Assembly (NCBI GenBank): GCA_963844875.1 | Contig: CAWJPZ010000005.1 | Location: 24,681 to 88,680, forward strand | Origin: an uncultured Acidobacteriota bacterium | Lineage (GTDB): Bacteria > Acidobacteriota > Vicinamibacteria > Vicinamibacterales > Fen-181 | Direction of reading: 5' to 3' | DNA length: 64,000 bases | Part shown: piece after piece, positions 2,931 through 41,931 of the stretch | How positions within the stretch are numbered: the stretch's first letter is position 1 | Layout: every line of letters starts with the position of its first letter | The notes under the pieces: generated by a model | Databases searched by the model: none | What the model was told of the DNA's origin: nothing | What the model saw: only the letters and a program-made list of their open reading frames with translations | Program-made: the position numbers and the translations under genes

Positions 2931-3055
2931 AAGGGTCCTTCGCCCGCCTCGCTGGCGGGCTTCGAGGTTCACGCCACCGTTGGCGCTTCGCCGCGATCCT
3001 GGTGCAGCCTATCGCGGCCGGGAACCGAGGGCAAGTGTCGTAAACTTGTCGCGCC

Positions 3056-5314: not shown

Positions 5315-5929
5315 GTGCCGCAACTCGCCTTCCTCATCGACGTGTCCTCCTGCAGCGGCTGCAAGGCCTGTCAGCTCGCCTGCAAGGACCGCCACGGGTT
5401 GGAGACGGGCCGGCTCTTCCGGCGGGTGGTCGAAGTCGAAGGCGGCGAGTGGACGCGGGCGGGCGATGCGTGGGAGACGACGGTCTTCGCCTATTCCATT
5501 TCTGCCTCCTGCATGCACTGCGAGGCGCCGGCGTGCGTCCCGGCCTGCCCGTCCTCGGCAATCGCCAAGGACGCTGACGGCGTGGTGACCGTCTCGCCGG
5601 ATCGATGCCTCGGGTGCCGGTACTGCGAGTGGGCCTGCCCGTACGGCGCTCCGCAGTTCTCGCAGGCCACGGGACTCATGAGCAAGTGCGACCTCTGCGC
5701 GGACGAGCGCGCGGAGGGGCGCCCGCCGTCGTGCGTGGCGGCGTGCCCGCTCCGGGCCCTCGACGTCGGCCCCCTGGACGAGTTGCGCGCGCGTCACGGC
5801 GCGCTGTCGACGCTCGGCCCTCTCCCGGAGCCTGCCCGGACGATGCCGGCCGTCGTCATCGTTGCGCCGAAGGGGGCAGCCGGCCGCCAGGCCACCCGCA
5901 TCGTCAATGCCGAGGAGATCCTGCGATGA
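5315..5929 (+). CDS. DmsB-like 4x[4Fe-4S] electron-transfer subunit
   Basis: 204 aa with four Cys clusters (CSGCKACQLAC, CMHCEAPACVPACP, CLGCRYCEWACP, CDLC...CVAACP). It starts immediately after the DmsA-like stop. Confidence 0.85.
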   Translation: MPQLAFLIDVSSCSGCKACQLACKDRHGLETGRLFRRVVEVEGGEWTRAGDAWETTVFAYSISASCMHCEAPACVPACPSSAIAKDADGVVTVSPDRCLGCRYCEWACPYGAPQFSQATGLMSKCDLCADERAEGRPPSCVAACPLRALDVGPLDELRARHGALSTLGPLPEPARTMPAVVIVAPKGAAGRQATRIVNAEEILR

Positions 5930-7008: not shown

Positions 7009-7302
<294 letters not shown>

Positions 7303-20550: not shown

Positions 20551-21024
20551 TTATCGAGCAAGCCACTCCGCCATCTGCGTCGCGAGGCAGTCGACGGCGG
20601 CTGCGACCCGCGGTGAAAGCGGCTGGCCCATTTCGAGCGTCGCGGGCTGGATGCCGATCAGCGCCACCTGGCAGCCGAGGTCGGCGGTCAGGTAGGTGGC
20701 CAGCACGGACGGCGGAAGCGTGTGGGTCGAGGCGCTCATGCCGTCGGCGTCGTGCCAGTCGATCCAGGCGAGCGTGCCAGGAGGCTGCTCCTGGTGCGCG
20801 GCGTCCACCTCGACGATCAGGTCGGGACGGAACCGCCGGAGGGGACCGGTGAAGTTCTCGGGCGCCGTGCCGCCGTTGATCAACAGCAGTCCCGGCGTCG
20901 CCGCCAGCTGCGCCGCCAGCGCCTTCACCACGCACACGCCCGCCCCGTCATCGCCATTCATCTCGTTCCCGACGCCGAGCACGGCGACGCGCGCAGGGCG
21001 TGGAGGGAAGGGCAGCGTCTGCAT
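20551..21024 (-). CDS. hycI: Hydrogenase maturation endopeptidase (HycI/HyaD family)
   Basis: It has the VLGVGNEMNGDDGAG motif, is 157 aa, and is the last gene of the hydrogenase operon. Confidence 0.8.
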   Translation of the reverse strand: MQTLPFPPRPARVAVLGVGNEMNGDDGAGVCVVKALAAQLAATPGLLLINGGTAPENFTGPLRRFRPDLIVEVDAAHQEQPPGTLAWIDWHDADGMSASTHTLPPSVLATYLTADLGCQVALIGIQPATLEMGQPLSPRVAAAVDCLATQMAEWLAR

Positions 21025-21029
21025 AAGAA

Positions 21030-21113
21030 GGCTTCAGGCTCCAGGCTTCAGGCTCTGGGCCGCGTCTGGCCCCGGCTCAGGGCCCAGGGCTCAAGCCTCA
21101 AGCCTCAGGCCTG
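21030..21113. repeat. 7-nt-periodic array (12 heptamers), GGCTTCN family, imperfect inverted arms
   Basis: GGCTTCA GGCTCCA GGCTTCA GGCTCTG GGCCGCG TCTGGCC CCGGCTC AGGGCCC AGGGCTC AAGCCTC AAGCCTC AGGCCTG. It fills the gap between the NuoI-like gene and hycI. Confidence 0.85.
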
Positions 21114-21114
21114 A

Positions 21115-21552
21115 TTACGCCGTCGCGGGCGCGGCTGCGGCCGGAGGTGCCGCCGGCTTGGGCGGCGGGTTCTTCAGCGCGTCGATGTCCTCGGGGCGGC
21201 CCAGGAGGAGCGTGAACGCCGCGCGATCCAGCGCTGCCAGCTCCCACCGCTCGTGCGACATGCTCAGCGCGTCGAAGTTGCAGCTGACGACGCACTGCGC
21301 GCAGAAGGTGCAGCGGTCGGTGTGGAACTTCATCACGAAGCGCTTGGTCGCCTTGTCGACGACCTGCAGCTCCACGGCGAACGCGGGGCAGTCGCGCACG
21401 CAGATCTTGCAGCCGGTGCACTTGGCCGGATCGAACGTGAGCTGGCCCCGCAGCCGTTCGGGCGTGGGCTTCCGCTCGAACGGGTAGCGTTCGGTCACCG
21501 GCCGCTTGAAGAGCGACTGGGTGATATCGCCGAGCATTGCGCCGATTCTCAT
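21115..21552 (-). CDS. Hydrogenase 2x[4Fe-4S] subunit (NuoI/HycF/MbhN-like)
   Basis: It carries CTGCKICVRDCP and CTFCAQCVVSCN, and has a Pro/Ala-rich C-terminal tail. Confidence 0.8.
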   Translation of the reverse strand: MRIGAMLGDITQSLFKRPVTERYPFERKPTPERLRGQLTFDPAKCTGCKICVRDCPAFAVELQVVDKATKRFVMKFHTDRCTFCAQCVVSCNFDALSMSHERWELAALDRAAFTLLLGRPEDIDALKNPPPKPAAPPAAAAPATA

Positions 21553-21635
21553 TTCCGGTACCTCGGGCGAGGGCCTGAAGGCCCTCGCCTACATCAACGG
21601 CCGCACCAGCCACTACGCGTGATCCCACCGCCCGT

Positions 21636-22554
21636 CTACCGGAGAATGACGATCAGGAACAGCTGGGCGATGGCCAGCAGGATCCCGATCCGCCACCACA
21701 TTCCCACGGTCTGGTCGATGCGAAGGCGGCAGAACAACGCCTGCAGGCCGGCGGTGACGACCAGCAGGCCGCCCGTCTTCAGCACGAACTCGAGAGGATT
21801 CGCGATCCCGCCGAGGTAGAACGACGCGATCAGCGTCAGGCCGACGAACAGCTCGACGTCGCGTCCGATTCGGAACAGCGCCCAGCCGCGGCCGCTGTAC
21901 TCGGTCATCGGGCCGGCGACGATCTCCGTTTCGGCCTCGGGGGAATCGAACGGGGGCAGTTCGAGCTTGCCCATCAGCCCGACGACCGCCACGAGGAAGC
22001 CGATCGGCTGGGTGACCACCATCCACCAATGTCCGTGGGCGAACGCGTCGACTCTGCAGATCTGCCAGGATCCGGCGATGATGGCCGGGCCCAGCAGCGC
22101 GAGCAGGAACGGCGCCTCGTACGAGAACAGCTGCGTGAGCGCCCGCGTCGCCCCGATCAGGGAGAACCGGTCGATCGTGTTCGCCCCGGCCAGGCCCATC
22201 GACAGTGTCATGAGGCTGAGGAGATACAGGGTGACGATCAGGTCGCCAGTGAAGCTGTAGGCCGGGACGAGGCCGGCCATCGGCACGTAGAGCGCGGCGG
22301 TGAGGGTCCCGACCAGGGCGACGATCGGCAGGCCGTGGAACAGCACCGGGTTGACGCCGTCGGGGACGATCTCCTCCTTGGCGAGGAGCTTGAACACGTC
22401 GGCGATCGGCTGGAACCAGCGCGGCCCGATCCGGTTCTGGAACTGCGCCACCAGCTTGCGGTCGGCGTATTCGTACCAGGTCCCGGCAAACAGCAGGAAC
22501 AGGCCGCCCGGGAAGAAGAGCAGCGCGATGAGTCGGCGGCAGCTGGATGTTCAT
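21636..22554 (-). pseudogene. Hydrogenase membrane subunit (NuoH/HycD/MbhM-like); one frameshift near the 5' end
   Basis: ORF 21636..22451 is NuoH-like (FQNRIGPRW..., PFDSPEAETEIVAGPMTEYSG). ATG 22554 (MNIQL...) is in another frame, and LIALLFFPGGLFLLFAGTWYEYADRKLVAQFQNRIGP is restored by a shift near 22520-22535. An ATGA overlap links it to the large-subunit stop. Confidence 0.8.
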
Positions 22555-23748
22555 CGGTAATACTCGATTCCGTATTGGCGCAGCCTGGCCCACGTCCACG
22601 TTTCGGCATCGTCCCTGCGCCGGATGGTGACCAGGCGGTCGTTGCACGAGAAGCACGGGTCGATGCCGGCGATGAGCATCGGCACGTCTGCCAGCTTGTG
22701 GCCGGGGGCGGTGGTGATCACCGACCCCCAGTTGCACAGGCTCGGGGTGCGGACCTTCACGCGGTCCGGGTTCGCGCCGCCCGCGCTCTTCAGGTAGTAG
22801 AGCAGTTCGCCGCGCGGGGCCTCCACCCGGCTCACGGTCTCGCCCGGCGGCACCTTCGGCTTGACGCGCACGGCCAGGTCGCCCGGCGGCATGTGGTCGA
22901 GGATCTCGCGGATGACGCGGTAGCTCTCGAACAGTTCCTGCAGACGGACGATGAACTTCGCCTCGAGGTCTCCGGCCGTCGCGGTGATGGTCTTGACGGG
23001 GAAGTCCGGGATACGCGGCGTACGGCGAATCCACGCGGATGTCGCGCGCCACGCCGGATGCGCGGGCGGTCGGCCCGACGGCGCCGAGGGTGTCGGCCTC
23101 GTCCGCCGTCATCTTGCCGACGTTGCGCGTGCGCCCGATCAGCGTCTCGTCGGTGGTGACGACCTTGAGGTAGTGGTGCGTGCGCGGCTCGAGCAGGTCG
23201 ACCGCCTTGCGGATGGCGTCCGCCTGCGCGTCGTCGACGTCGAACTTCACGCCGCCCAGGACGTTGCACGAGTAGTTGACGCGGTTACCCGTCAGCCCCT
23301 CCAGCACGTCCATGATCACTTCGCGGTCGCGCCACGAATACATGAACAGGGTGTCGAAGCCGCCCTCGTGGGCGGCGACGCCGAGCCACAGCAGGTGGCT
23401 GTGCACCCGCTCGAGTTCGGCGACGAGCACCCGGATCGCCTGGGCGCGCGGCGGCACCTGCACGCCTGCCAGCGCTTCGACGCCGAGGGCGTACGCCGTC
23501 GCGTGCACGTGCGAGCAGATCCCGCAGATCCGCTCGAGCATGTACATCGCCTGCGCCCAGTTCTGTCCCTCGACGCCCTTCTCGATCCCGCGGTGCACGT
23601 AGCCGAGGCGGACCGTGGCGGCGGTCACGATCTCGCCGTCCACCGTGATCTCGAAGTGGCCCGGTTCCTTCAGGGCCGGGTGCTGGGGCCCGATCGGCAC
23701 CACGAATTTCCTGCGCGGTTCCTGGTAAGTGTCCATCTCGTCCCTCAA
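22551..23748 (-). pseudogene. Group-4 [NiFe] hydrogenase large subunit (NuoD/HycE/MbhL-like); one frameshift
   Basis: The Ni-Fe ligand motifs RICGICSHVH (N-terminal) and DPCFSCNDR (C-terminal) are present, with a 27-aa tail after the second. The shift lies at 23006-23012 (...DSPYAAYP|DFPVKTITATAGDLEAKFIVRLQELF...). Confidence 0.85.
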
Positions 23749-23752
23749 AATC

Positions 23753-23787
23753 GGCTTTCGGCTTCTGGCTTCAGGCTTCCGGCGGTG
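23753..23787. repeat. 7-nt-periodic array GGCTTTC GGCTTCT GGCTTCA GGCTTCC GGCGGTG
   Basis: This is a direct heptamer array with no inverted partner, lying in the 47-nt gap between the NuoC-like and large-subunit genes. Confidence 0.8.
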
Positions 23788-23795
23788 TCACGCAG

Positions 23796-24311
23796 TCACG
23801 CTGGCAGACCTTTGAAGGCCTTCCTCAACGGGTAGACGCCGTCGGGCCAGTCGTCGGGCAGCAGCAGCTTCCCGGCATCCGGGGTGCCCTCGACCACGAT
23901 GCCGAACATCTCCATCAGCTCGCGCTCGTAGAGCGTCGCCGACGGGATGATGCTGCACACGCTCGGCACCACCGCGTCGTGGTAGGGAACGCTCACCCGC
24001 AGCGTGGCGACCACCGGACCGCTGACGAACTGGTAGAGCGCCTCGAGCCGGTCTTCCATCAGCGCGGCCGCCTCGGGCGTCAGGGCCTGCGGAGCGGCCG
24101 GCTTGGCGGGCGTCGGCCACGGGTGGTCGAGGCCCGTGATCGCCGACAGGTATCCCCAGCGCGCGTCGATGATCGTCTTGACGGCGGCGCACAGGTCCTC
24201 GCGCCTGACGATCGCCTCCACCCGCCCGGGAGCATGCACCACTGCGCCCACCGCGAAGGGCTGCAGCAGGGCGTCGGCTGCCTTGACGATGGCTTCGATT
24301 GGCATGGTCAT
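23796..24311 (-). CDS. Hydrogenase NuoC/MbhK-like (30-kDa) subunit
   Basis: 171 aa with a NuoC-type C-terminal core: YERELMEMFGIVVEGTPD...LLLPDDWPDGVYPLRK. Confidence 0.75.
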   Translation of the reverse strand: MTMPIEAIVKAADALLQPFAVGAVVHAPGRVEAIVRREDLCAAVKTIIDARWGYLSAITGLDHPWPTPAKPAAPQALTPEAAALMEDRLEALYQFVSGPVVATLRVSVPYHDAVVPSVCSIIPSATLYERELMEMFGIVVEGTPDAGKLLLPDDWPDGVYPLRKAFKGLPA

Positions 24312-24314
24312 CTC

Positions 24315-24800
24315 CTAGGCCACCGCCTCGGCGCCCTGCGCTGGGGCCGGCTGCTTCAGGCTGTTGAGCAGTGCGACGACGCCGTAGATGATCGCCTCCG
24401 GCCGCGGCGGGCAGCCGGGCACGAAGGCGCTCACCGGGATCACGTCGCCCAGGTTTCCGACGATGTTGTAGCAGCCCTGGAACGCGCCGCCCGAGATGCC
24501 GCACGACCCGACGGCCACGACGAACTTCGGGTCCGGCATCTGTTCGTAGATCCGGACCAGGCGGTCCTTGGCGAGGCGCGTCACCGGCCCGGTGCAGATC
24601 AGCACGTCGGCGTGGCGCGGGCTGCCCTGGAGTTTCACGCCGAAGCGCTCCAGGTCGTAGCGCGGGGTCAGGGTGGCGAGGATCTCGATGTCACACCCGT
24701 TGCACGACCCGCTGTTGAAATGGATGGCCCACGGCGAGTTGACCCGCGCCCACGTCCGCAGCGGGTTCATGATCGCGTCGAGCAGCGACACGTTTCCCAT
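24315..24800 (-). CDS. Hydrogenase small subunit (NuoB/HycG/MbhJ-like)
   Basis: The proximal-cluster cysteines are present: GSCNGCDIE, VAVGSCGISGG and VPGCPPRPE. Confidence 0.85.
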   Translation of the reverse strand: MGNVSLLDAIMNPLRTWARVNSPWAIHFNSGSCNGCDIEILATLTPRYDLERFGVKLQGSPRHADVLICTGPVTRLAKDRLVRIYEQMPDPKFVVAVGSCGISGGAFQGCYNIVGNLGDVIPVSAFVPGCPPRPEAIIYGVVALLNSLKQPAPAQGAEAVA

Positions 24801-24809
24801 ACCACGCTC

Positions 24810-25122
24810 CTATCCGAGAATCAGCGCCACGAGCGCGATCAGCAGCCCGACCAGGTAGACCGTCGCCGGCGCGGGCAGGCTCCCGACGCCGAGCACCAGC
24901 ATCGCCAGGTGGACCACGGCGAAGAACAGGGCAATGAGGAAGAACGGCTGGTATCCCGGCGCGGCTTCGAACGTGGGCGACGCCTCGCCGCTGCCGTAGA
25001 CGCTGCTCTTCACGGCGTTGGCATTCGCCGGGCCGGCCAGGAGCCGGCCGATCCCCGACGAGGATCAGCACCAGCGGGATGTAGGCCAGGAAGGCCACCG
25101 GGGGAGAGAGAAGAAGGTTCAT
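24810..25122 (-). pseudogene. Small membrane subunit, NuoA/MbhI-like; one frameshift
   Basis: MNLLLSPPVAFLAYIPLVLILVG joins IGRLLAGPANANAVKSSVYGSGEASPTFEAAPGYQPFFLIALFFAVVHLAMLVL..., with a shift at a C4/G4 run at 25053-25056. The layout resembles NuoA. Confidence 0.55.
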
Positions 25123-25134
25123 GCGGGCCCTCTC

Positions 25135-26671
25135 CTAGAATTGCGCCAGCGCGCCGGCGCCGGAGAACATCGACACCAGGTGGACGCCGCCGGGTGTGTG
25201 ACGAAGTCCATCAGCCCGGGCCAGAAGCCCGAGCACCACCACGACCAGGGTCAGCACGACGAGCGGGGCGCCCATCAGGAACGACACCGGCCTGCCGGAG
25301 GCGACCGCCGCCGACGGCTCGTGCCGGTACATCCGGTTGACGAGCGGCGCGTAGTACGCGAGCGACAGGACGCTGTTCAAGGCAGCGAAGATGACGAGCG
25401 CCTCGACCCCCGCGTTGCGCGTCTCGAAGCCCGCGACGAAGATCTGCCACTTGGACATGAACCCGGACAGCGGCGGCAGGCCGCCGAGCGCCAGCACCGA
25501 GATGCTGAGCGCGAACGCCGTGATCGGGTACTTGTTGCCGGCGCCGTTCAGGTCGTCGACCATGAGCGGGTCGTGGCTGCCGCGCGCGACGTGGAGCGAG
25601 TAGAGCAGCGCGCCGGCCGCCATGAAGGCGAGCCCCTTCATCAGCGCGTGGTTGAACAGGTGGAAGAAGCCGCCCGCCGCGCCGTTCGCGACGCCGTAGC
25701 CCACCGCCACGCCGAAGCCGACCAGCATGTAGCCCATGTGGCTGACGCTGGAGTAGGCGAACATCCGCTTCACCTGCGTCTGCCGCAGGGCCATCAGGTT
25801 GCCCGACGATCATGTTCAGCGCGCCGAACGCCAGGATCATCGACCCCCAGGTCGCGCTCGACCGGGGCGAGGCAGCCGAGCGACCGCAGCATCGCGATCA
25901 GGCCGGCTTCGATCACGATTCCCGACAGCATGGCGCTGATGCCGCTCGGCGCCTGGGAGTGCGCGTCGGGCAGCCAGGTGTGCAACGGGACGAGCGCGGT
26001 CTTCACCCCGAAGCCGATCAGGAAGAGCGCTCCCGCGGCCAGGAGTTGAGGCGGTGTGGGGCGGGCCGCGATCGCCAGCACCTGCTGGAGGTCGAGGGTG
26101 CCGGTCTGCGCGAAGACGAACGCGATGCCAATCAGCACGAAGGCGGAACCCACGGCCGACTGCACCAGGTACTTCACGCCCGCCTCGAGCGATCCCCGCT
26201 GCTCGCGGTAGAACGCCACGAGCAGGAACGAGGTGACGGCCATCGCCTCGAACCAGACCCACAGGTTGAACAGGTCGTTCGCGCACCCGAGGCCGATCAT
26301 CGTCGCGGCCATCGACACGAGCAGGGCGTAGTCCTTCTCCTCGCCCTCCTCCCCGCGCATGTAGGGGATGGAGAAGACCGATACGAGGAGGGTCAGCACC
26401 AGCACGGTGCCCGCCACGACCAGGCCGACGCCGTCCATCCGCAGCGAGATCGCGCCCACCGTCAACGAAACCGTGCCGCCGCGCCAGCACGGCGCTGGCC
26501 ACGTACCAGAGCGGAACCCCGGTCGGCCGCCAGCGTGAGCACCGACAGCCAGCGTGCCGGCGCCGCCGAGTCGCGCCGAGCCGCACGCTGATTCGGCCGG
26601 CCAGGTAGATCACCGGCGACGGCGACGAGGGGCAGCAGGAGCAACCAGGTCAATGCGAGTGTCGGGTTCAT
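25135..26671 (-). pseudogene. Antiporter-like membrane subunit (NuoM/NuoN/MrpD-like); at least 6 frameshifts
   Basis: Conserved blocks are spread over three frames: WLPDAHSQAPSGISAMLSGIVIEAG, KRMFAYSSVSHMGYML and GLPPLSGFMSKWQIF. Shifts lie near 26612, 26575, 26530, 26470, 25845 and 25797. Confidence 0.75.
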
Positions 26672-26676
26672 AGGAT

Positions 26677-28441
26677 CAGGCCCCTCCGAGCGCCAGGATG
26701 CCGAGCAGCACGACCAGCGACGACGAGGATCGCCAGGACGTTCCAGTTCAGCACCCCGTTGTGCGTCGCGCGCAGCGACTCGGCCGAGCTCTTCGGTCAC
26801 CCGGATCGACGCCGCGGTTGATCGCCTCGAAGCCGAAACTGTTCGGCGCCATCGTGCCGATGCCGCGCAGCGCGCTGGCGACTGCCGCCAGTTTGCCCGC
26901 GCTGCCACCACGCCGCCAGGCCCAGCGCCACCACGCCGAGCGCCAGGAACGTGGCCGGAGCGGTGGCGATCGTTTGCCAGCAGGACGGACGTGCCCTCCA
27001 CCTCGTGCTCCGGCGGCAACGCCTTGCCGAGGAAGTGCCCGAAGTCGCCGGCGAGGAGCCAGGTGGTGAGCGTGCCGAACGCCAGCGGGACCAGCGCGAC
27101 CTTCATCGCCGGCCCGGCGTCGTGCACGTGCTTGCCGCCGCGGGGCTCGCCGAAGAACACCATCGACAGGAAGCGCAGGGTGTAGAGCGCGGTCAGGCCG
27201 GCGCCCGACCAGCATGAAGAGCCCACGCCCACGAGCGGGCCGCCCTCGTGCCCGGCTTCGAGCACCAGTTCCTTGCTCCAGAAGCCGTTGAGGATCGGGA
27301 TGCCGGCCAGCGCCAGCCCGCCGATGATCATCACGACCTTCACGAGCGGCATCTGGCGGCCGAGACCGCCCATCTCGCGCATGTCGCGCGTGTGCACGGC
27401 GTGTATCACCGCGCCCGCCGAGAGGAAGAGCAGCGCCTTGAACACCGCGTGCGACAGCAGGTGGAACTGGCTGGCGAAGATGCCGCCGCAGCCCAATCGC
27501 GTAGACCATGTAGCCCAGCTGGCTGACGGTCGAATAGGCGAGGACCCGCTTCAGGTCGTTCGACACGATCGCCATGACCGCGGCCATCAGCGCCGTGACC
27601 GCGCCCACGGCGACGACCGCCAGCTTCCAGTACGGCACCGCCTCGAACGCCGGGTAGAACCGGGCCAGCAGGTAAACGCCCGCGTTCACCATCGTCGCGG
27701 CATGGATCGAGCGCGGAGATCGGCGTCGGCGCCTCCATCGCGTCGGGCAGCCAGGTCTGGAACGGGAACTGCGCCGACTTCGCGGCCGCCGCCACGAGGA
27801 AGCCGAACGCCATCAGCGCGAGGACGTTCGCCGGGAGGCTGGAAGCGCCGGCGAGGAACGTCGGCACGTCGTAGCTGCCCTGGTAGACGTAGAGGAACAG
27901 CGCGCCGGCCAGCAGGCCGATGCCGCCGACCTGGGTGATGATCAGGGCCTTGATGCCCGCCGCCACCGCCTTCGGGTCGTCGTTGTAGAACGAGATCAGC
28001 GCGTAGGAGCACAGCGCGGTGATCTCCCAGAACACGAAGACCATCAGCAGGTTGCTCGACAGGACGAGGCCCACCATCGACCCGATGAAGAACAGCACGT
28101 AGGCGTAGTAGCGGCCCAGCTGCCGCTCGCCCCTCATGTAGTCCACCGAGAAGATGACCGCCAGGCTGCCGATGGTCGTCGCGATGACGGCCAGGAACAC
28201 CGCCAGGCCGTCCGGCAGGAACGTCAGGGAGCCGAACGCGGAGCCGAGCGGCGAAGCCAAGGACGTTCACCTCGGTCCGCTGGGGGATCATGGCGAGTGC
28301 GGCGGCCGCGCCGGCCAGCGCGAACAGCACCGCGAGCGCGTGCTGCACCTGCGGCTTCCGGTCCTGGACCGCCCAGATCACGACGGCGCCCAGCCACGGC
28401 AGGCCAATCGAGAGCAGCGCAAGGGTCTCGATGGTCGGCAT
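26677..28441 (-). pseudogene. Antiporter-like membrane subunit (NuoL/MrpA/MbhH-like); at least 8 frameshifts
   Basis: Conserved blocks include FVFWEITALCSYALISF, KSAQFPFQTWLPDAMEAPTPISAL, MVNAGVYLLARF, LAYSTVSQLGYM and FHLLSHAVFKALLFLSAG. Shifts lie near 28263, 27710, 27497, 26968, 26893, 26800, 26775 and 26715. Confidence 0.75.
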
Positions 28442-28445
28442 GGCG

Positions 28446-28757
28446 CTACCTCCGCAGGGTCGACAGCGCCTGGAGGTCCAGCGTGCCGAACTGCCGGCGC
28501 ACCTGGACCGCGAGGGCCAGCGCGACGACGGAAACGATCGTGTCCGCCACGATCACGGTGAGCGCCATCGTCTGACCGGTCTGCACCTGGCCGGACAGCT
28601 TGCCGGCGAGGACGAGCGCGAGCATCGCGCCCTTCACCAGGACCTGCAGGCCGACGACGACCTTGATGAGGTTGCGCGTGACGAGCAGGCCCAGGAGGCC
28701 GATGCCCAGCAGGCCGAGCACCGCCACCGCGGTGAGCAGCGGAAGCGAGAGTGACAT
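28446..28757 (-). CDS. NuoK/MnhC/MbhG-like small membrane subunit
   Basis: 103 aa with three TM segments. Its start overlaps the upstream stop (TGATG). Confidence 0.7.
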   Translation of the reverse strand: MSLSLPLLTAVAVLGLLGIGLLGLLVTRNLIKVVVGLQVLVKGAMLALVLAGKLSGQVQTGQTMALTVIVADTIVSVVALALAVQVRRQFGTLDLQALSTLRR

Positions 28758-29245
28758 CACTGGTGCTCCTTCCGGGCGGCCACCCGCCCTTCGGTCAGCA
28801 GCCCGAGGACCGCCAGGACGCCGCCGATGATCAGCACGACCTGGAGCAGGACGTCCAGGCTCCGGTTCTGCCACAGGACGGTCGCGAACGTCTCGCCCTC
28901 GGCCGCCGCCGCTTCCGCCCGGAGGTTGGGGAGCGCCATGGCGGCGCCCAGGCCGATGGCGCAGAGCGCCACGACCCAGGCCAGCGGGGCCGGCACGAGC
29001 GAGCGCAGCGTGACCGGCGGCTCCTCGCCCGCGATGTTGATGGCGAACACGAACAGGACGGTGACCAGGCCGGCACCGACGCTCAACTCGATGACGGCGA
29101 CCTCGGGCGCCCCGAGCCGGAACATCATCAGCGCCGTGAGCGCCGAGGCGCCCGCCAGCCAGAGTGCAGCGATCAGGAGGCGTGTGCCGCGAACGGCCTG
29201 GAAGGCACACACCAGCAACGCTGCCACGATCAGCAGGTCGAACAT
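28757..29245 (-). CDS. First gene of the hydrogenase operon: MbhD/MbhE (MnhB)-like or NuoJ-like membrane subunit
   Basis: 162 aa, hydrophobic. The N-terminal half (GAPEVAVIELSVGAGLVTVLFVFAI) is MbhD/NuoJ-like. The C-terminal half (LWQNRSLDVLLQVVLIIGGVLAVLGL) is MnhB-like. Confidence 0.5.
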   Translation of the reverse strand: MFDLLIVAALLVCAFQAVRGTRLLIAALWLAGASALTALMMFRLGAPEVAVIELSVGAGLVTVLFVFAINIAGEEPPVTLRSLVPAPLAWVVALCAIGLGAAMALPNLRAEAAAAEGETFATVLWQNRSLDVLLQVVLIIGGVLAVLGLLTEGRVAARKEHQ

Positions 29246-29531: not shown

Positions 29532-29672
29532 GACCGTAAATTATTCAGCCGTAGCGAAATGCGGCATATTGCTGAGGGTCAGAATGCGGCGCGTGTTGTA
29601 TTGTTCAGCAGCCTGATTTGTGGGCCGTCCGTCGCCGAAACCGACGCGCCGGGCGGCGCATCCATCGCTGTA

Positions 29673-29694
29673 GCACGGGGCTTCAGCCCCGTGC
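29673..29694 (-). terminator. Stem-loop just downstream of the preceding minus-strand gene
   Basis: GCACGGGGC-TTCA-GCCCCGTGC is a perfect 9-bp stem, 5 nt after the stop at 29699. There is no U-tract. Confidence 0.45.
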
Positions 29695-29698
29695 CCGA

Positions 29699-30617
29699 TC
29701 ACTCCTTCGGCGCGGCCGCGAGGTGGAGCGTGACCTCGAGCCGGACGCCCGTCACCGTCACCCTCCCGAACTTGTTCTCGTAGTCCTTGAATACCAGCTT
29801 CGTGGGCGTGGTCGTCACCGGCTTGAGATACTTGTCCAGGTTCTGCTGGATGTTGGCGAACGCCTTCCTGGCCGACGCGGCATCCGGGTAGGTCACGAGG
29901 ACGAGCGTCGTCTTGCCGGCGGCATCCTTGTAGTCGGCCGCGACTGCCGCGACCTTTCCGTTCAACAGCAGGATGTCGTCGTCGCCGAGCGTGTAGAGGG
30001 ACTGCAGGCCGAATGGTCCCCTGATGAGCCGTTCGGACCCGGCGACCAGTCCCGCCGCAGGGAGCGCCTTCAACTCGGGCGGCACCCGGTCGGGCGGCAG
30101 CCTGGCCGCCACCGCGCTGCCGAAGGCGACCAGCGCCGGCTGCATCTGGTCGGCGCCCGAGAGGTTGTTGATCGTGACGTAGTAGCGCTCGCGCACGAAC
30201 ATCAACTGGTGGCGGTTGATCGGTGTGGCGCGCCTTGAAGGCGGCGTCGGGCGTCTCCTTGCCGCGCTTCATCAGGTAGATGCCGGTCGCCGCCGCCGGG
30301 TCGGTCATCCGGTAGATTTCGACGGCGAACTCGTTCGCCCCGTTGCGGTACTTCTGCAGCGTCAGCTGATCGAACCCCAACTCCAGAAACAGTTCGGCCC
30401 CGCCGTCGATGTAGCCGTAGAGATCCGCCTTCGTGAAGACGCGGGGGTTGTCGGCCTTCTTCCAGCCTGCCACCGCCGCGTCGGCCGGCAACAGCGCCGA
30501 ATCGCCCGTCGGACGGGCGGACGCCTGCGCGTCGGGCATGACCGGGTCCGCTGACGTGGACCGAACGGCCACGCTCAGAACCGCCAGGACGCTCACCGTG
30601 CACAGCAATCGCCGCAT
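29699..30617 (-). pseudogene. Secreted hypothetical protein; one frameshift
   Basis: It has the signal peptide MRRLLCTVSVLAVLSVAVRSTSA and conserved-looking LYGYIDGGAELFLELGFDQ. The shift near 30205-30215 joins ORF 29541..30617 to ORF 29699..30205. Confidence 0.6.
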
Positions 30618-30637
30618 CCTTGTCTCCGACTCCCCTC

Positions 30638-30658
30638 GGGCAGGCGGGACGCCTGCCC
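30638..30658 (-). terminator. Stem-loop downstream of the DUF362 gene
   Basis: GGGCAGGCG-GGA-CGCCTGCCC is a perfect 9-bp stem in the 121-nt gap. Confidence 0.4.
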
Positions 30659-30738
30659 CACCGACCCTTGGTGCGTCCCGCCTTCGCGCTTCGCGCTACG
30701 GCGGCCGAGCAGTCCCGACCCCTCATCGTCGGATCCGA

Positions 30739-32026
30739 CTACACCTTCACGATGTGCATCTTCTCCGCCGCGACCACGCCGAGGCCCAGCGTCTCCGCGT
30801 AGCGCAGGTACTCGGTGATCCGCGGGCTCTCGTTGACGGTCACGCCCATTTCCTTCCGCTTCGCGTTGATCTCCTGGTGGCAGAGCATGTCCAGCGCGAA
30901 CGGGTCGGTGGCGAAGTAGAGGGAGTGGTTGTCGTAGACGAACTGGGCGTTCTTGTCGGGGCCGCCGTCGTACTGCGCGCGCAGGCCGTCGGTGATGTTC
31001 AGCGCGAGCTTGTCGCGCAGGACCGGCGCCGCCAGCACCTCGGTGTTCACCTTCAAGCGACAGCGGCGCGTGCAGCCGGCCGGTGTTGCAGACCGCCCCG
31101 TAGCCCAGGTTCTTGGTGGCCATCGAGATCGACGGCGCCGGTGTTCTTGAACGCGGCCACGTTGATGATGCGGGTCAGCTTCTTGGTCAGCAGCTTCCCG
31201 AAGTACGAGTACTCGCCGTTGAACACGTGCTGGTTCACGTAGAACTCGTCGTTCTTGTAGCCCTTCACGCCCTTGCCGACGATGCCCTTGGCGAAGTAGA
31301 AGACGTCCTTGTCGAAGTTGTCGATGGACACGTGCTTGCCGTCCGGTCCGCGCCACTTGTTGCCCGCTTCGTCCATCGTCTGCAGGCCTTCGAGGGCGAT
31401 GCCGGGGAAGCGGTCCTTGGTGAAGCCGGCGTCCTTCAGCATGTAGTCGAAGCGGTCCCAGATGACGATGTTCGACTTGGGGATGCCGTTGTCCACGAGC
31501 CACTTGATCACGGCGTCGACGACTTCGGGCCGGGTGTTGATGAGCGGCGGACCGACCGGGTTCACCTTGATCCCGACGACGTCGCGCGGGTCGATGAGGA
31601 GCCGGAACGACTCGTTCATCGGCTTGCCCGGTCAGCGTGGCGATGCCCTTGGCCGACCATCTCGTCGATGACCTTGCCGTCGAAGCTTGGCGTTGCCTCC
31701 GGCTTCTGCGCAGCAGGCGCGGGCGGCTCTCCCGCCTTGGCGGCCGGTGCCGAGGGCGGCGTCCACTTCTCGGGGACAGACCGCGCGTCGGTGACCTTCA
31801 CGACCCTGCCGGGGAAGGGGCCGGGCAGCGAGCGCGCCGTCTTCGGGACCTTGGTGAAGTCCCCGATGTTCGTTTCGACGGGGGCCGCCGGCTGCGGTGT
31901 CTGGCCGAAGCCAGGCCCGGCGAGCACGAGGCCGCCGGCGGCGGCGGCCGACGCCGCACCGATCGACTTCACGAATTCGCGGCGGTTGCACCCCGGGGCC
32001 AGGTCCATCGAGCGGTAACGCTTCAT
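30739..32026 (-). pseudogene. Tat-signal DUF362 domain protein; at least 3 frameshifts
   Basis: It has a twin-arginine leader [32 protein letters not shown]. The DUF362-like core is VVGIKVNPVG...INVAAFKNTG...ATKNLGYGAVCN...DGLRAQYDGGP. Shifts lie near 31640, 31125 and 31060. Confidence 0.65.
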
Positions 32027-32048
32027 CGTGTCTTCCTTTCGTTTGCCC

Positions 32049-32163
32049 GGCTTCGGGCTGCCACCTTCCGGCTTCGGGCCGCGTCAGGCATCGGGCAAAT
32101 GGTTGCGGCGCTGTCGGCCCTGTCTTCCGCCGGCCGGAAGCCGAGAGCCGGAGGCCTGGAGCC
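32049..32163. repeat. 7-nt-periodic array, GGCTTCN family, inverted arms around a ~50-nt centre
   Basis: GGCTTCG GGCTGCC ACCTTCC GGCTTCG GGCCGCG TCAGGCA ... GCCGGAA GCCGAGA GCCGGAG GCCTGGA GCC. It fills the gap between the polyferredoxin stop and the DUF362 start. Confidence 0.8.
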
Positions 32164-33865
32164 TATCGTTTCGGTGCCGGGGGCAGGATGAACTGGTTCG
32201 TCTTCGAGCGCGTTTCGCCGACGCTGGTGACATAGACGGCCGGCCGGTCCTTCACCGGGCAGGCGAACTCGCACGCGCCGCAGCCGATGCAGCGCTTGGC
32301 ATCGACCGCCGGCCGCCGGACCGTCTTCGTCTTCCCGTCCGCGTCCACCACGTCGGCGCTGGCGAGGTACGATGGCCTTCGGCGAGGTCGGGCAGCACTC
32401 CTCGCAGACGATGCAGTCGGTGGCCATCGCCCACGGCAGGCAGCGGCCCTGGTCGTAGAACGCCGTGCCGATCCTGATCGGGTTGCCGCCGGATCGGCGT
32501 GGGGCCGGGATTGCGGACCGGTCGCGGTTGCTCCGCCGGGAGGCTCTGCCAGCTTCTCGCCTCGGTGATCTTCTGGATGGCGCCGGTCGGGCAGACCTGG
32601 CCGCAGAGCACGCAGGTGGGCTCGCAGTAGCCGATGCGCGGCATGAGGATCGGCGTCCAGAGCCCCTCGATGCCGGCTTCGAAGAACGCCGGGTGCAGCG
32701 CGTTGTTCGGGCACACCTTCATGCACTCGCCGCAGCGGATGCAGCGCTCGAGGAAGTGCGGCTCCTCGAGCGCGCCCGGCGGCCGGATCAGGCGCGAGTC
32801 GGTTCCGACGTCGAGCCGGTCGGCGATGCGCAGCAGCGGCACGAGCGCGGCGCCGGCGGCGACGCCGGCGAGCAGCTTGCGGCGCTGCAGCTGCGGCGCT
32901 CGAGCGTGGTCGCGGCCGACGGCAGCGAGCCGAAGCGGAACGCGATGCCGTCCGTGGGGCAGTCGCCCACGCAGTTCAGGCACAGGTGGCACTCGTCCTT
33001 CCGCCACTTCGCCGCCGGGGATCGGGTCGTCGCCGCCCTGGCAGTGCAGCAGGCAGCGGTTGCAGTCGTCGCACGCGGCCTGGTCCTTCTCCAGGCTGGA
33101 CCAGCGACCAGCGCGAGACACGCCGAGCAACGCGCCGAGCGGGCAGAGGGCGCGGCACCAGAACCGCGTGACGCGCAGGTTGAGGGCGAGCAGCCCGATG
33201 AAGATGGCGCCGAGGAAGAACGCCTGCCGGAAGTGCGGCTGCTTGAAGCTGACGAGCGTCGCCCTGCAGCACGAACTGCGCCGCGTCCGCGGCGAAGCGG
33301 ACCGGCTGCCAGGGGCTGTCGTACCACGACGTCGAGCAGCGCGCCCGAGGCGTAGTTCACGCCCGGGAAGATCGACAGCCGCCAGCGAACGGACGCGTCA
33401 GCGAGATCGGGTCGAGCAGCCCGGCGAGCAGCGAGCCGAAGACCGCCGCCAGCAGCACCGCTGCCAGCACGTAGTACTTCACGGCCTGCCACGGCTTGTA
33501 GCGGTTCGAGTCGAGCAGCGCCTTTCCGCGCTTCTTCTCGGACTTGAAGCTCCCGAAGAAGTGGTGCAGCGTGCCGAGCGGGCAGACCCAGCCGCAGAAG
33601 AAGCGGCCGAGGACGAACGTCGGCACCAGGATCGACCAGGCTCCACAGCAGGCCGCGGTAGAGGGTGTGCGTGGAGATGCGCGGTCGCCATCGCGGCCAG
33701 CGGGTCGGCCTCGAGGAAGATCGAGACGGGCCACGGCAGCCGGACCTGTCCGGACGCCCCGCGGAACGAGCCCGTGAACTCGGACCGGAAGAGCAGGAAC
33801 AGGAACGCCGCGAGGAACACGATCTGCGAGACGCGGCGCACGACGGACAGGTGGGGACGCTGCAT
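32163..33865 (-). pseudogene. Membrane polyferredoxin, NapH-like N-terminal half fused to a NapG-like 4x[4Fe-4S] half; at least 9 frameshifts
   Basis: It has TM segments with two CX3CP motifs (FCGWVCPLGTL, WCRALCPLGAL). It also has CDDCNRCLLHC, CHLCLNCVGDCP, an internal RRKLLAGVAAGAALVPLL, then [30 protein letters not shown] and [12 protein letters not shown]. These motifs are spread over several frames. Confidence 0.65.
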
Positions 33866-33868
33866 AGG

Positions 33869-34852
33869 CTACACGGTACCACGCTTGGTCCGGACCTCCT
33901 CGAAGTTCGCCTTGCCGAGGCCGCGGGCCTGGGCGATGCGGAGGAACGGCAGGCGCTGATGGTCGAGGTCCCACCACGCCTTGGCGGCGTAGGATCGAGC
34001 GCGACCGGGTCGGTGCCGGCGAGCAGCGTCTTCTTCACCTCCACGTCGGCCAGGCTGCCTCCCGTCGGCCCGCCGCGCATCAGGACCCGGTAGGCGTCGA
34101 TGATCGTGAGCGTCGGCCGGGCGAAGGCGGTCAGGTCGACCAGGCTCTCGTTGATGCGCTGGTGCAGGCGGCTGCGCTGGCCGCCGATGATCCCGTAGAA
34201 GTTCTTCATGCCGAGCGTGCACGCCGGTCAGGCTGTGGTGCTTGGCGATCGGCAGGTTGATGACCTTGTCGGCGTTCAGAAACGGCTCGAGCACCGGCCA
34301 CGTCGGTCAGCACCTCGCCGCCCAGGTTGACCTGCTTGAACCGGCGCTCGTCGGGCAGGATCACCTCGGCGCCCGCGGCCTTCGCGGCCGCGGCGATCCC
34401 GCTGCGCTCGAAGCACACGCGGGGGTCGTTGCAGCTCATGTCGGTCACGATGACCCGCCTGGCGCCGGCGTCGAGGCACAGGCGGACGACCTCCGCGACG
34501 ACAGCCGGGTTGGTGTTCGCCGCCTGCTCGGGCGCGCGGTCCCAGCCGATGTTCGGCTTGACGACGACGATGTCGCCGCGGGCGATGAAGCGGCGCATGC
34601 CGCCGAGTTCCTCGAGCGCGCGGCGGACCAGGCCTCGGGCGAGCCGCCCTGTGCCACCACCATCTCGGGCAGGCCGGGGTCGGCGGGCACGCCCGTCCGG
34701 CGGCTGGCGACCAGGACTTCCGATTCCTTCGGCCGCTCGCTGCGCCAGCTGAGCCACCCGGCCGCGCCGACAGTGGCAGCGCTCAGGCCTCCGAGCCGCA
34801 GCACGCGCAGCATGAACTCGCGGCGGTCCGCCGCGGGTGTGTCACTCGCCAT
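33869..34852 (-). pseudogene. Tat-signal DUF362 domain protein (second copy); at least 4 frameshifts
   Basis: It has the leader MASDTPAADRREFMLRVLRLGG. The core is IVVVKPNIGWDR...RVIVTDMSCND...INLPIAKHHSLTG...MKNFYGIIGG...TIIDAYRVLMRGGPTGG. The stop lies 3 nt before the polyferredoxin ATG. Confidence 0.65.
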
Positions 34853-38529: not shown

Positions 38530-40203
38530 ATGACACGATCGTTCGCTCGGTTCCTGACGGTGGCGGCGGCCGGCTGCGCGCTGGCCGCCTGCGTCGGCGC
38601 GTCCTCCTCGGCTCCCAAGGCCCCCGAGGCCGTGCCGTTCCCGGCCATCGACGGCAACGCCGTCCTGGCGCACACGAAGATCCTCGCCTCCGACGCGTAC
38701 GAAGGCCGCGCGCCCGGGACGCACGGCGAGGAGGTCACGGTGGCTTACATCACCGACCAGTTCAGGAAGGCGGGTTTGAAGCCCGGCAACCCCGACGGCA
38801 GCTACGTCCAGAAGGTGCCGATGGTCGGCATCGTCACCGACCAGAAGGCCGTGCTCTCGTTCCGGCGCGGCGCAACGGAGCAGAAGCTCGCCTGGCGCGA
38901 CGACTTCGTGGCCTGGACCAAGCGCGTCGCGGACACGGTGACGGTGGACAAGTCGGACGTCGTGTTCGTCGGCTACGGCGTGCAGGCGCCCGAATTCAAC
39001 TGGGACGACTACAAGGGCGTCGACCTCAAAGGCAAGACGATGATCGTGCTGGTGGGCGACCCGCCGGTGACCGACCCGGCCAACCCCGGCGAACTGGACC
39101 CGAAGGTCTTCGGCGGGAAGGCGATGACCTACTACGGGCGGTGGACCTACAAGTACGAGATGGGGCAGAAGATGGGGGCCGCCGCCGTGCTCATCGTCCA
39201 CGAGACGGGGCCGGCCGGGTATCCGTTTGCGGTGGTGCAGGGGAAGATCGCCGAGCAGTTCAGCCTGGTGGCGCCCGACAAGAACATGAGCCGGGCCGCC
39301 GTGGAGGGCTGGATCACCTTCGAGCAGGCGAAGAAGCTGTTCGCCGCCGCGGGCAAGGACTTCGACGCGGCGAAGAAGGCCGCGCTCACGGCGGCGTTCA
39401 CACCGGTGCCGCTCGGCGCCTCCGCGTCCGTCACGCTGCGCAACACCATCCGCGGCATCGACTCGCACAACGTCGTGGGGAAGATCGAGGGAAGCGACCC
39501 GGCTCTCAAGAACGAGTACGTCATCTACACGTCCCACTGGGACCACTTCGGCATCGGGGTGCCCGTCAACGGCGACAAGGTGTACCACGGGGCCGTCGAC
39601 AACGCGACGGGTATTGGCGGCATGATCGAACTCGGCCGCGCGTTCGCGAAGATGCCGACGGCGCCGAAGCGGTCGATCCTGATGCTGGCCGTGACGGCCG
39701 AGGAGCAGGGATTGCTGGGATCCGGCTACTACGCGGCGAACCCGCTGTACCCCCTCGAGAAGACGGCGGGCGTCGTCAACATGGACGCGCTGAACGTCTA
39801 CGGCAAGACCAGGGACATCACGATCACCGGGCTGGGGAACTCGGAACTCGACGACTACGCGACGAAGGTTGCCGCGGAACAGGGGCGCGTGATCCGTCCC
39901 GACCCGGAGCCCGAGAAGGGCGGCTTCTTCCGTTCCGACCACTTCCCGTTTGCCCAGAAGGGCGTGCCGGCGCTGGCGAGCGGCGGCGGGATCGACTACG
40001 TCGGCAAGGACCCCGGCTGGGGACGCGCCAAGAGCGACGCCTACACCGCGAACGACTACCACAAGCCGTCCGACAACGTCCGGCCGGACTGGGACATGAG
40101 CGGCGCCGTGCAGGACCTCCAGTATTTCTGGATGGTCGGTTACCGGCTGGCGCAGGCCGACCGGTTCCCGGAGTGGAAGGCGGGATCGGGGTTCAAGCGG
40201 TAG
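38530..40203 (+). CDS. M28 family aminopeptidase with PA domain (lipoprotein)
   Basis: It has the lipobox AAGCALAAC and the M28 metal-ligand blocks HWDHFG, GAVDNATG, AVTAEEQGLLGS and FFRSDHFPF. Confidence 0.85.
   Translation: MTRSFARFLTVAAAGCALAACVGASSSAPKAPEAVPFPAIDGNAVLAHTKILASDAYEGRAPGTHGEEVTVAYITDQFRKAGLKPGNPDGSYVQKVPMVGIVTDQKAVLSFRRGATEQKLAWRDDFVAWTKRVADTVTVDKSDVVFVGYGVQAPEFNWDDYKGVDLKGKTMIVLVGDPPVTDPANPGELDPKVFGGKAMTYYGRWTYKYEMGQKMGAAAVLIVHETGPAGYPFAVVQGKIAEQFSLVAPDKNMSRAAVEGWITFEQAKKLFAAAGKDFDAAKKAALTAAFTPVPLGASASVTLRNTIRGIDSHNVVGKIEGSDPALKNEYVIYTSHWDHFGIGVPVNGDKVYHGAVDNATGIGGMIELGRAFAKMPTAPKRSILMLAVTAEEQGLLGSGYYAANPLYPLEKTAGVVNMDALNVYGKTRDITITGLGNSELDDYATKVAAEQGRVIRPDPEPEKGGFFRSDHFPFAQKGVPALASGGGIDYVGKDPGWGRAKSDAYTANDYHKPSDNVRPDWDMSGAVQDLQYFWMVGYRLAQADRFPEWKAGSGFKR

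Positions 40204-40257: not shown

Positions 40258-41931
<1,674 letters not shown>

Follow-up and report, generated by a model that had tools for sequence, protein, structure and literature searches.

What kind of enzyme is encoded by a cluster of genes that carries the catalytic motifs of a [NiFe] hydrogenase within a gene order reminiscent of complex I, and can it be functional if several of its reading frames are interrupted? The question is raised by a locus found in a stretch of 64,000 nucleotides (hereafter the window) from an uncultured Acidobacteriota bacterium (GTDB lineage Bacteria; Acidobacteriota; Vicinamibacteria; Vicinamibacterales; Fen-181; GenBank assembly GCA_963844875.1, contig CAWJPZ010000005.1, positions 24,681 to 88,680 of the forward strand). 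A first-pass annotation made from the sequence had described eleven genes of a group 4 [NiFe] hydrogenase with only two antiporter-like subunits. The analysis presented here indicates that this operon very probably encodes a ten-subunit energy-converting group 4 [NiFe] hydrogenase together with a HycI-type maturation endopeptidase, that the enzyme probably acts as a ferredoxin-driven ion pump and that the broken frames are most likely assembly errors.

The guanine plus cytosine (G+C) content of the window is about 69% and spurious open reading frames (ORFs) are plentiful in consequence; the coding strand of the operon was set by six-frame translation combined with a codon-position G+C model. 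Subunit families were assigned by a Pfam search of the window products, with the domains of the large subunit taken from the precomputed domains of its homologues. The operon occupies the minus strand from 29245, the start of the first gene, down to 20551, the stop of hycI, and the number, order, strand and outer limits of the genes as first annotated were borne out by Pfam, which recovered in succession MbhD/Oxidored_q3, Oxidored_q2, two Proton_antipo_M proteins, a weak Oxidored_q4, Oxidored_q6, Complex1_30kDa, NiFeSe_Hases plus Complex1_49kDa, NADHdh, a 2x[4Fe-4S] ferredoxin domain and HycI. The genes are arranged in a J-K-L-N block followed by an A-B-C-D-H-I block, and the Pfam families of all six core subunits of group 4 enzymes (NuoB-, NuoC-, NuoD-, NuoI-, NuoH- and NuoL-like) are present. 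There are thus ten structural subunits, two of them antiporter-like, and the protease is the eleventh gene. Beyond the generic NuoL and NuoB subfamilies, the NCBIfam search yielded no subunit-specific model. The start and stop codons of genes 8 and 9 overlap (ATGA), consensus promoter and terminator scans found none within the operon, and an Rfam scan of the window gave no match, hence no riboswitch or RNA gene upstream of it.

The catalytic identity of the complex is given by the large subunit. The Ni-Fe motifs RICGICSHVH (L1) and DPCFSCNDR (L2) and the 27-residue tail that follows the latter, all reported in the first-pass annotation, were read straight from the window translation. They fit the group 4 patterns C[GS][ILV]C[AGNS]xxH (L1) and [DE][PL]Cx[AGST]Cx[DE][RL] (L2). 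Both motifs, with all four cysteines, are invariant in 80 of 80 orthologues, and 75 of these 80 carry a C-terminal extension of 26-30 amino acids (aa). The extension of the window protein aligns with the cleaved extension of HycE. Homologues of 394 aa, up to 96% identical, contain PF00374 and PF00346, and among solved structures MbhL is the best match (1e-79) and HycE the second (3e-74). The last gene of the operon scores 55 bits with Pfam HycI (cut-off 23) and 107 with NCBIfam TIGR00072 (cut-off 47) and stays 0.5 bit short of TIGR00142 hycI (118.6 bits, cut-off 119.1). Its metal-site motifs GDDGAG, VDA and STH were read from the sequence, so that a HycI-type endopeptidase is indicated by the family match, by the Asp/Asp/His motifs and by the C-terminal extension of the large subunit. 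The cysteine motifs for the iron-sulfur clusters are conserved as well: in the NuoB-like small subunit, CxxC and GCPP each occur in 76 of 77 orthologues (GxCG in 62 of 77), and the NuoI-like subunit displays two CxxCxxCxxxC motifs in 76 of 76. The earlier view of a genuine hydrogenase is upheld by the invariant cysteines, the HycE-like extension and the dedicated HycI, and an identity as complex I or as an Ehr complex is ruled out by the four conserved Ni-Fe cysteines.

The large subunit has thousands of homologues (at least 8000 significant candidates), the best 120 of which span 96% to about 71% identity, and their automatic annotations vary among "ech hydrogenase subunit E", "NADH-quinone oxidoreductase subunit D" and "nickel-dependent hydrogenase large subunit". 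Related loci were collected as 168 matching stretches in a collection with one genome per species, and the best 80 of them were studied. The carriers among these 80 belong to the Acidobacteriota, several of them with the label Vicinamibacterales, and to the Anaerolineae. Four of the Anaerolineae are cultured: Longilinea arvoryzae KOME-1, Anaerolinea thermolimosa IMO-1, Leptolinea tardivitalis YMTK-2 and Ornatilinea apprima P3M-1. Wherever the locus is long enough (about 80 related loci), one strand carries all eleven genes in the same order; the comparison of orthologous clusters called for by the first-pass annotation thereby confirmed the subunit content and removed the rarity that its description had implied. 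The intact reference used throughout is L001, an Acidobacteriota contig of 3.2 megabases from a metagenome-assembled genome, whose large subunit is 93% identical to that of the window and whose operon shares 85% DNA identity with it; its eleven products measure 162, 103, 584, 509, 103, 162, 170, 394, 305, 146 and 158 aa. Flanks were annotated with Pfam at two loci, L001 and Longilinea, and the recurrence of flanking families was counted over 78 loci. No flanking family is common to more than 27 of the 78, and those that recur, such as valyl-tRNA synthetase and a glycosyltransferase, reflect local synteny. The constant order and the lack of a recurrent flanking family indicate that the eleven genes are the whole conserved unit. 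The cassette itself contains no NuoEFG, formate dehydrogenase (FDH), carbon monoxide dehydrogenase (CODH), MrpEFG or hyp genes, and no hyp, FDH, CODH, NuoEFG or Mrp genes were found in the two Pfam-annotated flanks, in line with the absences noted at first.

The membrane arm is of mixed affinity. Searched against the PDB, the product of gene 3 matches cyanobacterial NdhF (4e-86), Escherichia coli NuoL (2e-81) and MrpA (6e-73), and MbhH with just 1e-49; its orthologue passes the cut-off of NCBIfam TIGR01974 NDH_I_L. It aligns with E. coli NuoL through transmembrane helix (TM) 15 up to the start of the lateral helix HL (FGFE vs WGFD), and the alignment picks up again at the end of HL and TM16, skipping about 30 NuoL residues of HL, which suggests that the lateral helix is shorter by about the width of a single antiporter-like subunit. 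Gene 4 ranks differently: MbhH (1e-69), MbsH (6e-49) and NuoN (2e-42). Across about 73 orthologues both antiporter-like subunits keep the TM5 Glu, TM7 Lys, TM8 His or Glu and TM12 Lys; the gene 4 family keeps the TM7 Lys, TM8 Glu and TM12 Lys, the one notable deviation being this Glu in place of the TM8 Lys of MbhH. In gene 1, residues 3-70 match MbsD (6u8y_D) and MbhD (6cfw_D) and Pfam NuoJ spans residues 15-138, and on these grounds the product behaves as a fusion of MbhD and MbhE. Gene 5, which lies ahead of the nuoB-like gene where nuoA or mbhI does, had been called NuoA/MbhI-like. A single-sequence search against solved structures gave no match, and a profile of 25 orthologues matched solely ND3/NuoA chains, weakly (E = 0.02-0.6) and over the full length, with no match to MbhI, so that the gene looks weakly NuoA-like (Pfam E = 0.002, below the cut-off) rather than MbhI-like. 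Taken together, the predicted membrane complex is an Mbh-like core with a distal pump of the complex I/Mrp type. The placement of the architecture between Mbh and complex I is accordingly sustained by the MbhH-type subunit and the MbhD match on one side and the NuoL-type distal subunit on the other. Two antiporter-like subunits are not unusual. The Mbs complex also has two, MbsH and MbsH', and both chains H and X of PDB 6u8y were matched.

From these assignments a working cycle can be proposed, in which the analogy with Mbh, Ech and the formate hydrogenlyase (FHL) supplies ferredoxin as the partner, the direction in which the reaction runs and the ion that is pumped. Reduced ferredoxin would dock on the NuoI-like 2x[4Fe-4S] subunit, and its electrons would reach the Ni-Fe site of the NuoD-like subunit by way of the one [4Fe-4S] cluster in the NuoB-like small subunit. 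At the Ni-Fe site two protons would be reduced to H2. The energy released would be transmitted via the NuoH-like and the small NuoA/J/K-like subunits to the two antiporter-like subunits, the proximal one of MbhH type and the distal one of NuoL type, clamped by the short lateral helix, which would export H+ or possibly Na+. HycI would cut off the 27-residue tail of the large subunit once the metal has been inserted. That the electron donor is not evident from the context, as noted at first, is not a puzzle considering that Mbh and Ech also have no donor module and are fed by soluble ferredoxin through the NuoI-like subunit; a soluble donor fits the cassette because neither a donor module nor a recurrent flanking family was found. 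Precedent is provided by the purified Ech2 of Thermoanaerobacter kivui (group 4g), which couples ferredoxin-dependent H2 production to H+ translocation (PMC9356269). At standard conditions the span between ferredoxin and H2 covers about one ion per H2 (PMC9356269). By our own calculation, at the very low H2 pressures of syntrophy this span roughly doubles, and a second pump would then be affordable. The cultured Anaerolineae live by anaerobic fermentation and grow better in the company of H2 consumers, and a second pump affordable at low H2 fits this lifestyle.

In the first-pass annotation the genes were presented as whole, yet five of the eleven (L-, MbhH-, A-, D- and H-like) are not continuous ORFs in the window: their frames had been stitched silently, and an extra base in gene 8 places L1 and L2 in different frames. 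Searches of the window with the L001 proteins (tblastn) found each broken gene spread over two to six frames, and the DNA alignment with L001 revealed 21 frame-shifting insertions, of which the NuoL-like gene has 11, the second antiporter-like gene 7 and the A-, D- and H-like genes one each (positions in Table 1), together with about two internal single-base deletions. It could be argued that the operon is a genuine pseudogene cluster, and that real frameshift mutations have put the hydrogenase out of action in the recent past: almost half of the genes are broken, 18 of the 21 insertions fall in the two antiporter-like genes, and a decayed relative is known at another locus (L083), a D-like gene depleted of its cysteines with just a nuoC-like neighbour. 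In bacterial gene decay a deletion bias is usually reported. Here insertions exceed deletions by about 10:1, the opposite of that bias. Once the indels are removed the repaired genes contain zero in-frame stops, and the ratio of nonsynonymous to synonymous substitution rates relative to L001 is 0.07-0.15 in the broken genes, as in the intact ones (0.10-0.20). The insertion sites also have a context in common, with TCG within three bases at 12 of the 21 against 3.9 expected. Damage extends beyond the hydrogenase: in the region syntenic with L001 outside the operon, argH (near 16017) and argR (near 13700) are frame-shifted as well, and argG, an MFS transporter, MatE and FKBP are intact. Frame switches on one strand with no stops between them are common from 10.8 to 35 kilobases (kb) of the window, including the block upstream of the operon, and rare from 36 to 62 kb. 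Homopolymer slippage was rejected as the sole cause, many inserted bases lying outside homopolymer runs. Based on the insertion excess, the TCG context, the absence of stops after repair, the low substitution ratios and the breaks in argH and argR, the frameshifts are most likely patchy, context-dependent insertion errors of the assembly and not decay specific to the hydrogenase; inactivation by real mutation is quite improbable. In practice, gene calls in this window need frame repair before gene loss is deduced from them.

Table 1. Genes of the hydrogenase operon, listed in order of transcription, and other features of the window. Indels are single-base differences relative to L001.
Feature	Coordinates	Strand	Length and state	Basis or content	Indels
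Gene 1, MbhD+MbhE-like fusion, NuoJ-like, small membrane subunit	28757..29245	-	162 aa, intact	Pfam MbhD E = 5.6e-9, Oxidored_q3 E = 7.6e-8; 93% identical to L001 orthologue	
Gene 2, NuoK/MrpC/MbhG-like membrane subunit	28446..28757	-	103 aa, intact	Pfam Oxidored_q2 E = 5.6e-15; NCBIfam NuoK-type matches all below cut-off	
Gene 3, distal antiporter-like subunit, NuoL/NdhF/MrpA type, lateral helix apparently shortened	26676..28441	-	~584 aa, frame-shifted	Pfam Proton_antipo_M E = 3.7e-77	insertions 28251, 27712, 27488, 27233, 27224, 27206, 26972, 26895, 26806, 26788, 26720; deletion ~26677
Gene 4, proximal antiporter-like subunit, MbhH/MrpD/NuoN type	25135..26671	-	~509 aa, frame-shifted	Pfam Proton_antipo_M E = 1.1e-65	insertions 26620, 26568, 26526, 26485, 25859, 25804, 25231; deletion ~25186
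Gene 5, three-helix membrane subunit, weakly NuoA/ND3-like	24810..25122	-	103 aa, frame-shifted	Pfam Oxidored_q4 E = 0.002, below cut-off	insertion 25052
Gene 6, NuoB-like hydrogenase small subunit, one [4Fe-4S] cluster	24315..24800	-	161 aa, intact	Pfam Oxidored_q6 E = 5e-31	
Gene 7, NuoC-like subunit	23796..24311	-	171 aa, intact	Pfam Complex1_30kDa E = 4e-24	
Gene 8, [NiFe] large subunit	22551..23736	-	394 aa after repair	L1 RICGICSHVH, L2 DPCFSCNDR	insertion near 23007
Gene 9, NuoH/MbhM-like membrane subunit	21636..22554	-	305 aa, frame-shifted	Pfam NADHdh E = 2e-69	insertion 22533, just past the overlap with gene 8
Gene 10, NuoI/MbhN-like subunit, 2x[4Fe-4S]; likely ferredoxin docking and electron entry site	21115..21552	-	145 aa, intact	Pfam Fer4 families	
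Gene 11, HycI-type maturation endopeptidase	20551..21024	-	157 aa, intact	HycI family matches and motifs (see text)	
Heptamer tandem repeats	21029-21055, 21090-21112, 23752-23783		3-5 copies each	AGGCTCC, CTCAAGC, CGGCTTC	
Upstream DUF362-polyferredoxin block	29541-34835	-		adjoins the operon	
DmsABC-type molybdoenzyme	3052-6689	+		A and B subunits above NCBIfam cut-offs	
2x[4Fe-4S] ferredoxin	7010-7205	-	63 aa	sole ferredoxin gene in the window	
Apparent electron-transfer flavoprotein genes	1-1456	+		second gene, Pfam match; first gene, beta subunit by reading of the sequence	
Tandem paralogues	38550-40183, 40272-41908	+	~545 aa each	similar throughout	

Supposing an intact enzyme, the reaction might also run in reverse, with H2 oxidation and the membrane potential, acting through the two antiporter-like subunits, driving the uphill reduction of ferredoxin, a role that has been proposed for Ech in methanogens. 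The same direction was suggested for Hfo in Bathyarchaeia (PMC7886697), and purified T. kivui Ech2 runs both ways (PMC9356269). More ion channels per electron pair would suit a reaction driven by the potential, and hosts of the Vicinamibacterales type probably respire, as the genes for a reductase of the dimethyl sulfoxide (DMSO)/selenate family and for an electron-transfer flavoprotein (ETF) in the window suggest, and could supply that potential. This direction is nevertheless considered unlikely, if somewhat more plausible in respiring Acidobacteria, since most carriers are Anaerolineae whose cultured members are fermenters helped by H2 consumers, which points to H2 evolution, since the low H2 of syntrophy would make the span from ferredoxin to H2 sufficient for two ions according to our calculation, and since no ferredoxin-consuming pathway is linked to the cassette. 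The operon might instead belong to a formate- or CO-dependent H2-evolving complex (FHL-like or CODH/ECH-like) whose dehydrogenase is encoded elsewhere, as group 4 enzymes often partner with FDH or CODH and a 2026 survey reported, for Chloroflexota and Acidobacteriota, clusters of group 4b that include Fdh subunits (PMC13582414). Against such a partnership, neither dehydrogenase is found in the two annotated flanks and no family recurs around the roughly 78 loci; connecting ferredoxin subunits of the HycB/HycF type are lacking, the molybdoenzyme of the window is a DMSO/selenate-family reductase (TIGR02166 above cut-off) located 15 kb away, and with HycE and a CooH-like protein the large subunit has no more than 37-38% identity. 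Dependence on formate or CO is therefore hardly to be expected.

Several points weigh against the preferred interpretation of the operon as a functional, ferredoxin-driven hydrogenase. The activity of every member of the family is predicted from sequence, and ferredoxin is proposed as the partner by analogy, the sole ferredoxin gene of the window lying 13 kb off. No hyp maturation genes occur in the window, and the phylogeny is a neighbour-joining tree with few labelled references. Two antiporter-like subunits plus a NuoH-type channel would exceed the small span between ferredoxin and H2 at standard H2 pressure, and given this excess of pumping capacity the true direction or stoichiometry may differ from the one proposed. 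Finally, the concentration of 18 of the 21 insertions within two genes is unlike what uniform random error would produce.

Regarding placement, 150 representatives were collected at 50% identity and a neighbour-joining tree was built of 130 sequences, with clades labelled from source names for some clades only. In this tree, with its few labelled references, 40 of 40 bootstraps recover a monophyletic family, MbhL lies in another clade and the deeper nodes are not settled; further labelled clades include a Pelolinea 360-aa type and an Acidilobaceae protein. No labelled reference exceeds 48% identity with the core of the window large subunit: the values are 48% to a Mbh-like protein of Methanoregula ("membrane-bound hydrogenase subunit alpha"), 46% to a C/D-fused Bathyarchaeota representative, about 45% to an Ech-like protein of Oscillospiraceae, 43% to MbhL, 38% to the CooH-like CO-induced hydrogenase of Telmatospirillum and 37% to HycE. 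Sequences this distant from labelled references usually end up in subgroup 4g, which was described as loosely clustered and of unknown function by its authors (PMC5037454) and is polyphyletic (PMC13582414, PMC7886697). For Anaerolineae, a catalogue of group 4 hydrogenases and Ehr complexes exists that does not dissect them (bioRxiv 10.1101/2021.08.23.457424). A literature search found no paper on this ten-subunit cassette, and the accession of the Longilinea protein appeared in none.

A close counterpart is the Mbh of Pyrococcus furiosus (14 subunits, group 4d, PDB 6CFW), which shares D/E, G, H, the mbhI position, J, K, L, M and N in the same order. The proximal antiporter-like subunit of the cassette is of MbhH type, gene 1 matches MbhD, MbhL is the best structural match of the large subunit, and neither system has a built-in donor module. 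In contrast to Mbh, the cassette is devoid of the sodium module (MbhA, B, C and F, homologous to MrpE, F, G and B), encodes MbhD and MbhE as one gene, contains an extra NuoL-type subunit whose lateral helix is predicted to be short and has at the mbhI position a gene that is weakly NuoA-like and not MbhI-like; the large subunits are 43% identical and the hosts of the cassette are bacterial. A hydrogenase resembling complex I is not new either. For Bathyarchaeia a group 4g enzyme of 11 subunits and Fpo-like make-up, Hfo, has been put forward and considered as a connection between hydrogenases and complex I (Loh et al. 2021, PMC7886697). Both are [NiFe] hydrogenases made of complex-I-type subunits (A, B, C, D, H, I, J, K, L and antiporter-like), without a sodium module and without a NuoEFG or FpoFO module, and both are biochemically uncharacterised. 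Hfo has three antiporter-like subunits in the order A-B-C-D-H-I-J-K-L-M-N, whereas the cassette has two and places J-K-L-N ahead of A-B-C-D-H-I; with ten subunits, one antiporter-like fewer, it falls outside the Hfo type (group 4g-6; eleven subunits, nuo/fpo order). The C/D-fused Bathyarchaeota representative, whose identity with Hfo itself is not established, is not sister to the family.

Many family members are named "ech hydrogenase subunit E" in the automatic JGI annotation, and the six core subunits are indeed those of Ech and Ech2 (groups 4e and 4g; Methanosarcina, T. kivui). Ech however consists of six subunits with one antiporter-like protein, while the cassette has ten with two, besides the 27-aa extension and HycI. 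The likeness to complex I (Nuo/Nqo) resides in the blocks J-K-L-(M/N) and A-B-C-D-H-I, arranged as in nuo, and in a NuoL-type subunit that retains the canonical charged residues, begins its helix HL with GF(D/E) and has a TM16 anchor; the two-antiporter arm also resembles MrpA plus MrpD with MrpC. It differs from complex I in that the D subunit retains the Ni-Fe cysteines, which speaks against quinone chemistry, in the absence of NuoEFG, in having two antiporter-like subunits and not three, in an HL about 30 residues shorter and in the swapped blocks. FHL (Hyc/Hyf, group 4a, PDB 7Z0S) shares the homologous C-terminal extension of HycE and the HycI-type protease; the cassette, by comparison, has no FdhH, HycB or HycF, its C and D subunits are unfused and its gene order is different. 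As a tentative reading, more doubtful than not, the cassette might be an intermediate form, found in bacteria and without the sodium module, that stands between the hydrogenases of Mbh type and complex I. In it a Mbh-like module with a MbhH-type pump would have gained a NuoL-type distal pump, with a lateral helix one subunit long, along with a fused NuoJ-like subunit and a NuoA-like one. If this were the case, the second pump would raise the ratio of ions to electrons and allow fermenters to conserve more energy at H2 levels lowered by syntrophs, and a structure would show the first attachment of a lateral-helix clamp and a multi-pump arm to a hydrogenase.

Some relatives of the large subunit deviate from the family pattern. 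In P0138 (L083:6071-7683; NCBI GCA_041575255.1, contig JBFGNF010000075.1), which is 48-49% identical and stands beside the family in the neighbour-joining tree in a placement that is not robust, three of the four Ni-Fe cysteines are lost (L1 ELFGLCPHAH, L2 DPYFSFKDS) and a tail resembling the hydrogenase extension is retained. On its contig only a nuoC-like gene lies ahead, with no membrane subunits, small subunit or protease, and the gene is either a decayed remnant or part of a repurposed soluble pair. Five other relatives from metagenomes (P0133, P0478, P0479, P0490 and P0498) have large subunits of 549-571 aa; in all but P0133 PF00329 (NuoC) is fused ahead of the large subunit, and in P0133 the C-D fusion is deduced solely from the length and the start of the match. 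These fusions imply that C and D were fused more than once within or near the lineage.

Various features of the window surround the operon (Table 1). The heptamer repeats fill two spacers, one separating the nuoI-like gene from hycI and the other separating the nuoC-like gene from that of the large subunit; in L001 the nuoI-hycI spacer holds different 8-mer repeats, AACTGAGT/AACTGGGC. The block adjoining the operon upstream encodes a DUF362 protein with a twin-arginine translocation (TAT) signal, a membrane polyferredoxin with two Fer4_5 domains and several 4Fe-4S domains, a second DUF362-like protein with a TAT signal and a secreted DUF6599 protein. This block is found upstream in just six Acidobacteriota loci, the window and L004-L008, and was rejected as part of the enzyme because L001, L010-L012 and all Anaerolineae lack it; the block may serve as a redox partner specific to the lineage or be a mere neighbour. 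Farther away are the molybdoenzyme, the 63-aa ferredoxin, a candidate partner, and the apparent ETF genes, and these redox genes suggest a facultatively anaerobic host. The tandem paralogues match the M28 peptidase that flanks the L001 operon, with 79% and 61% identity over part of that gene.

Altogether, the operon is an uncharacterised but well-conserved lineage of a known enzyme class, and the copy in the window is nothing out of the ordinary within it. The find has moderate appeal for its architecture and comes as no surprise. For bioenergetics, it offers a natural experiment in the assembly of a complex-I-type arm, with a predicted Mbh-like core, a NuoL-type second pump, a short lateral helix and no sodium module. 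The presence of the cassette in four cultured Anaerolineae makes direct testing feasible. From the ecological standpoint, it would constitute a widespread, self-contained route for H2-evolving (or H2-consuming) energy conservation in two abundant groups of soils, sediments and digesters, the Anaerolineae and the Vicinamibacterales-type Acidobacteria, the latter usually deemed aerobes.

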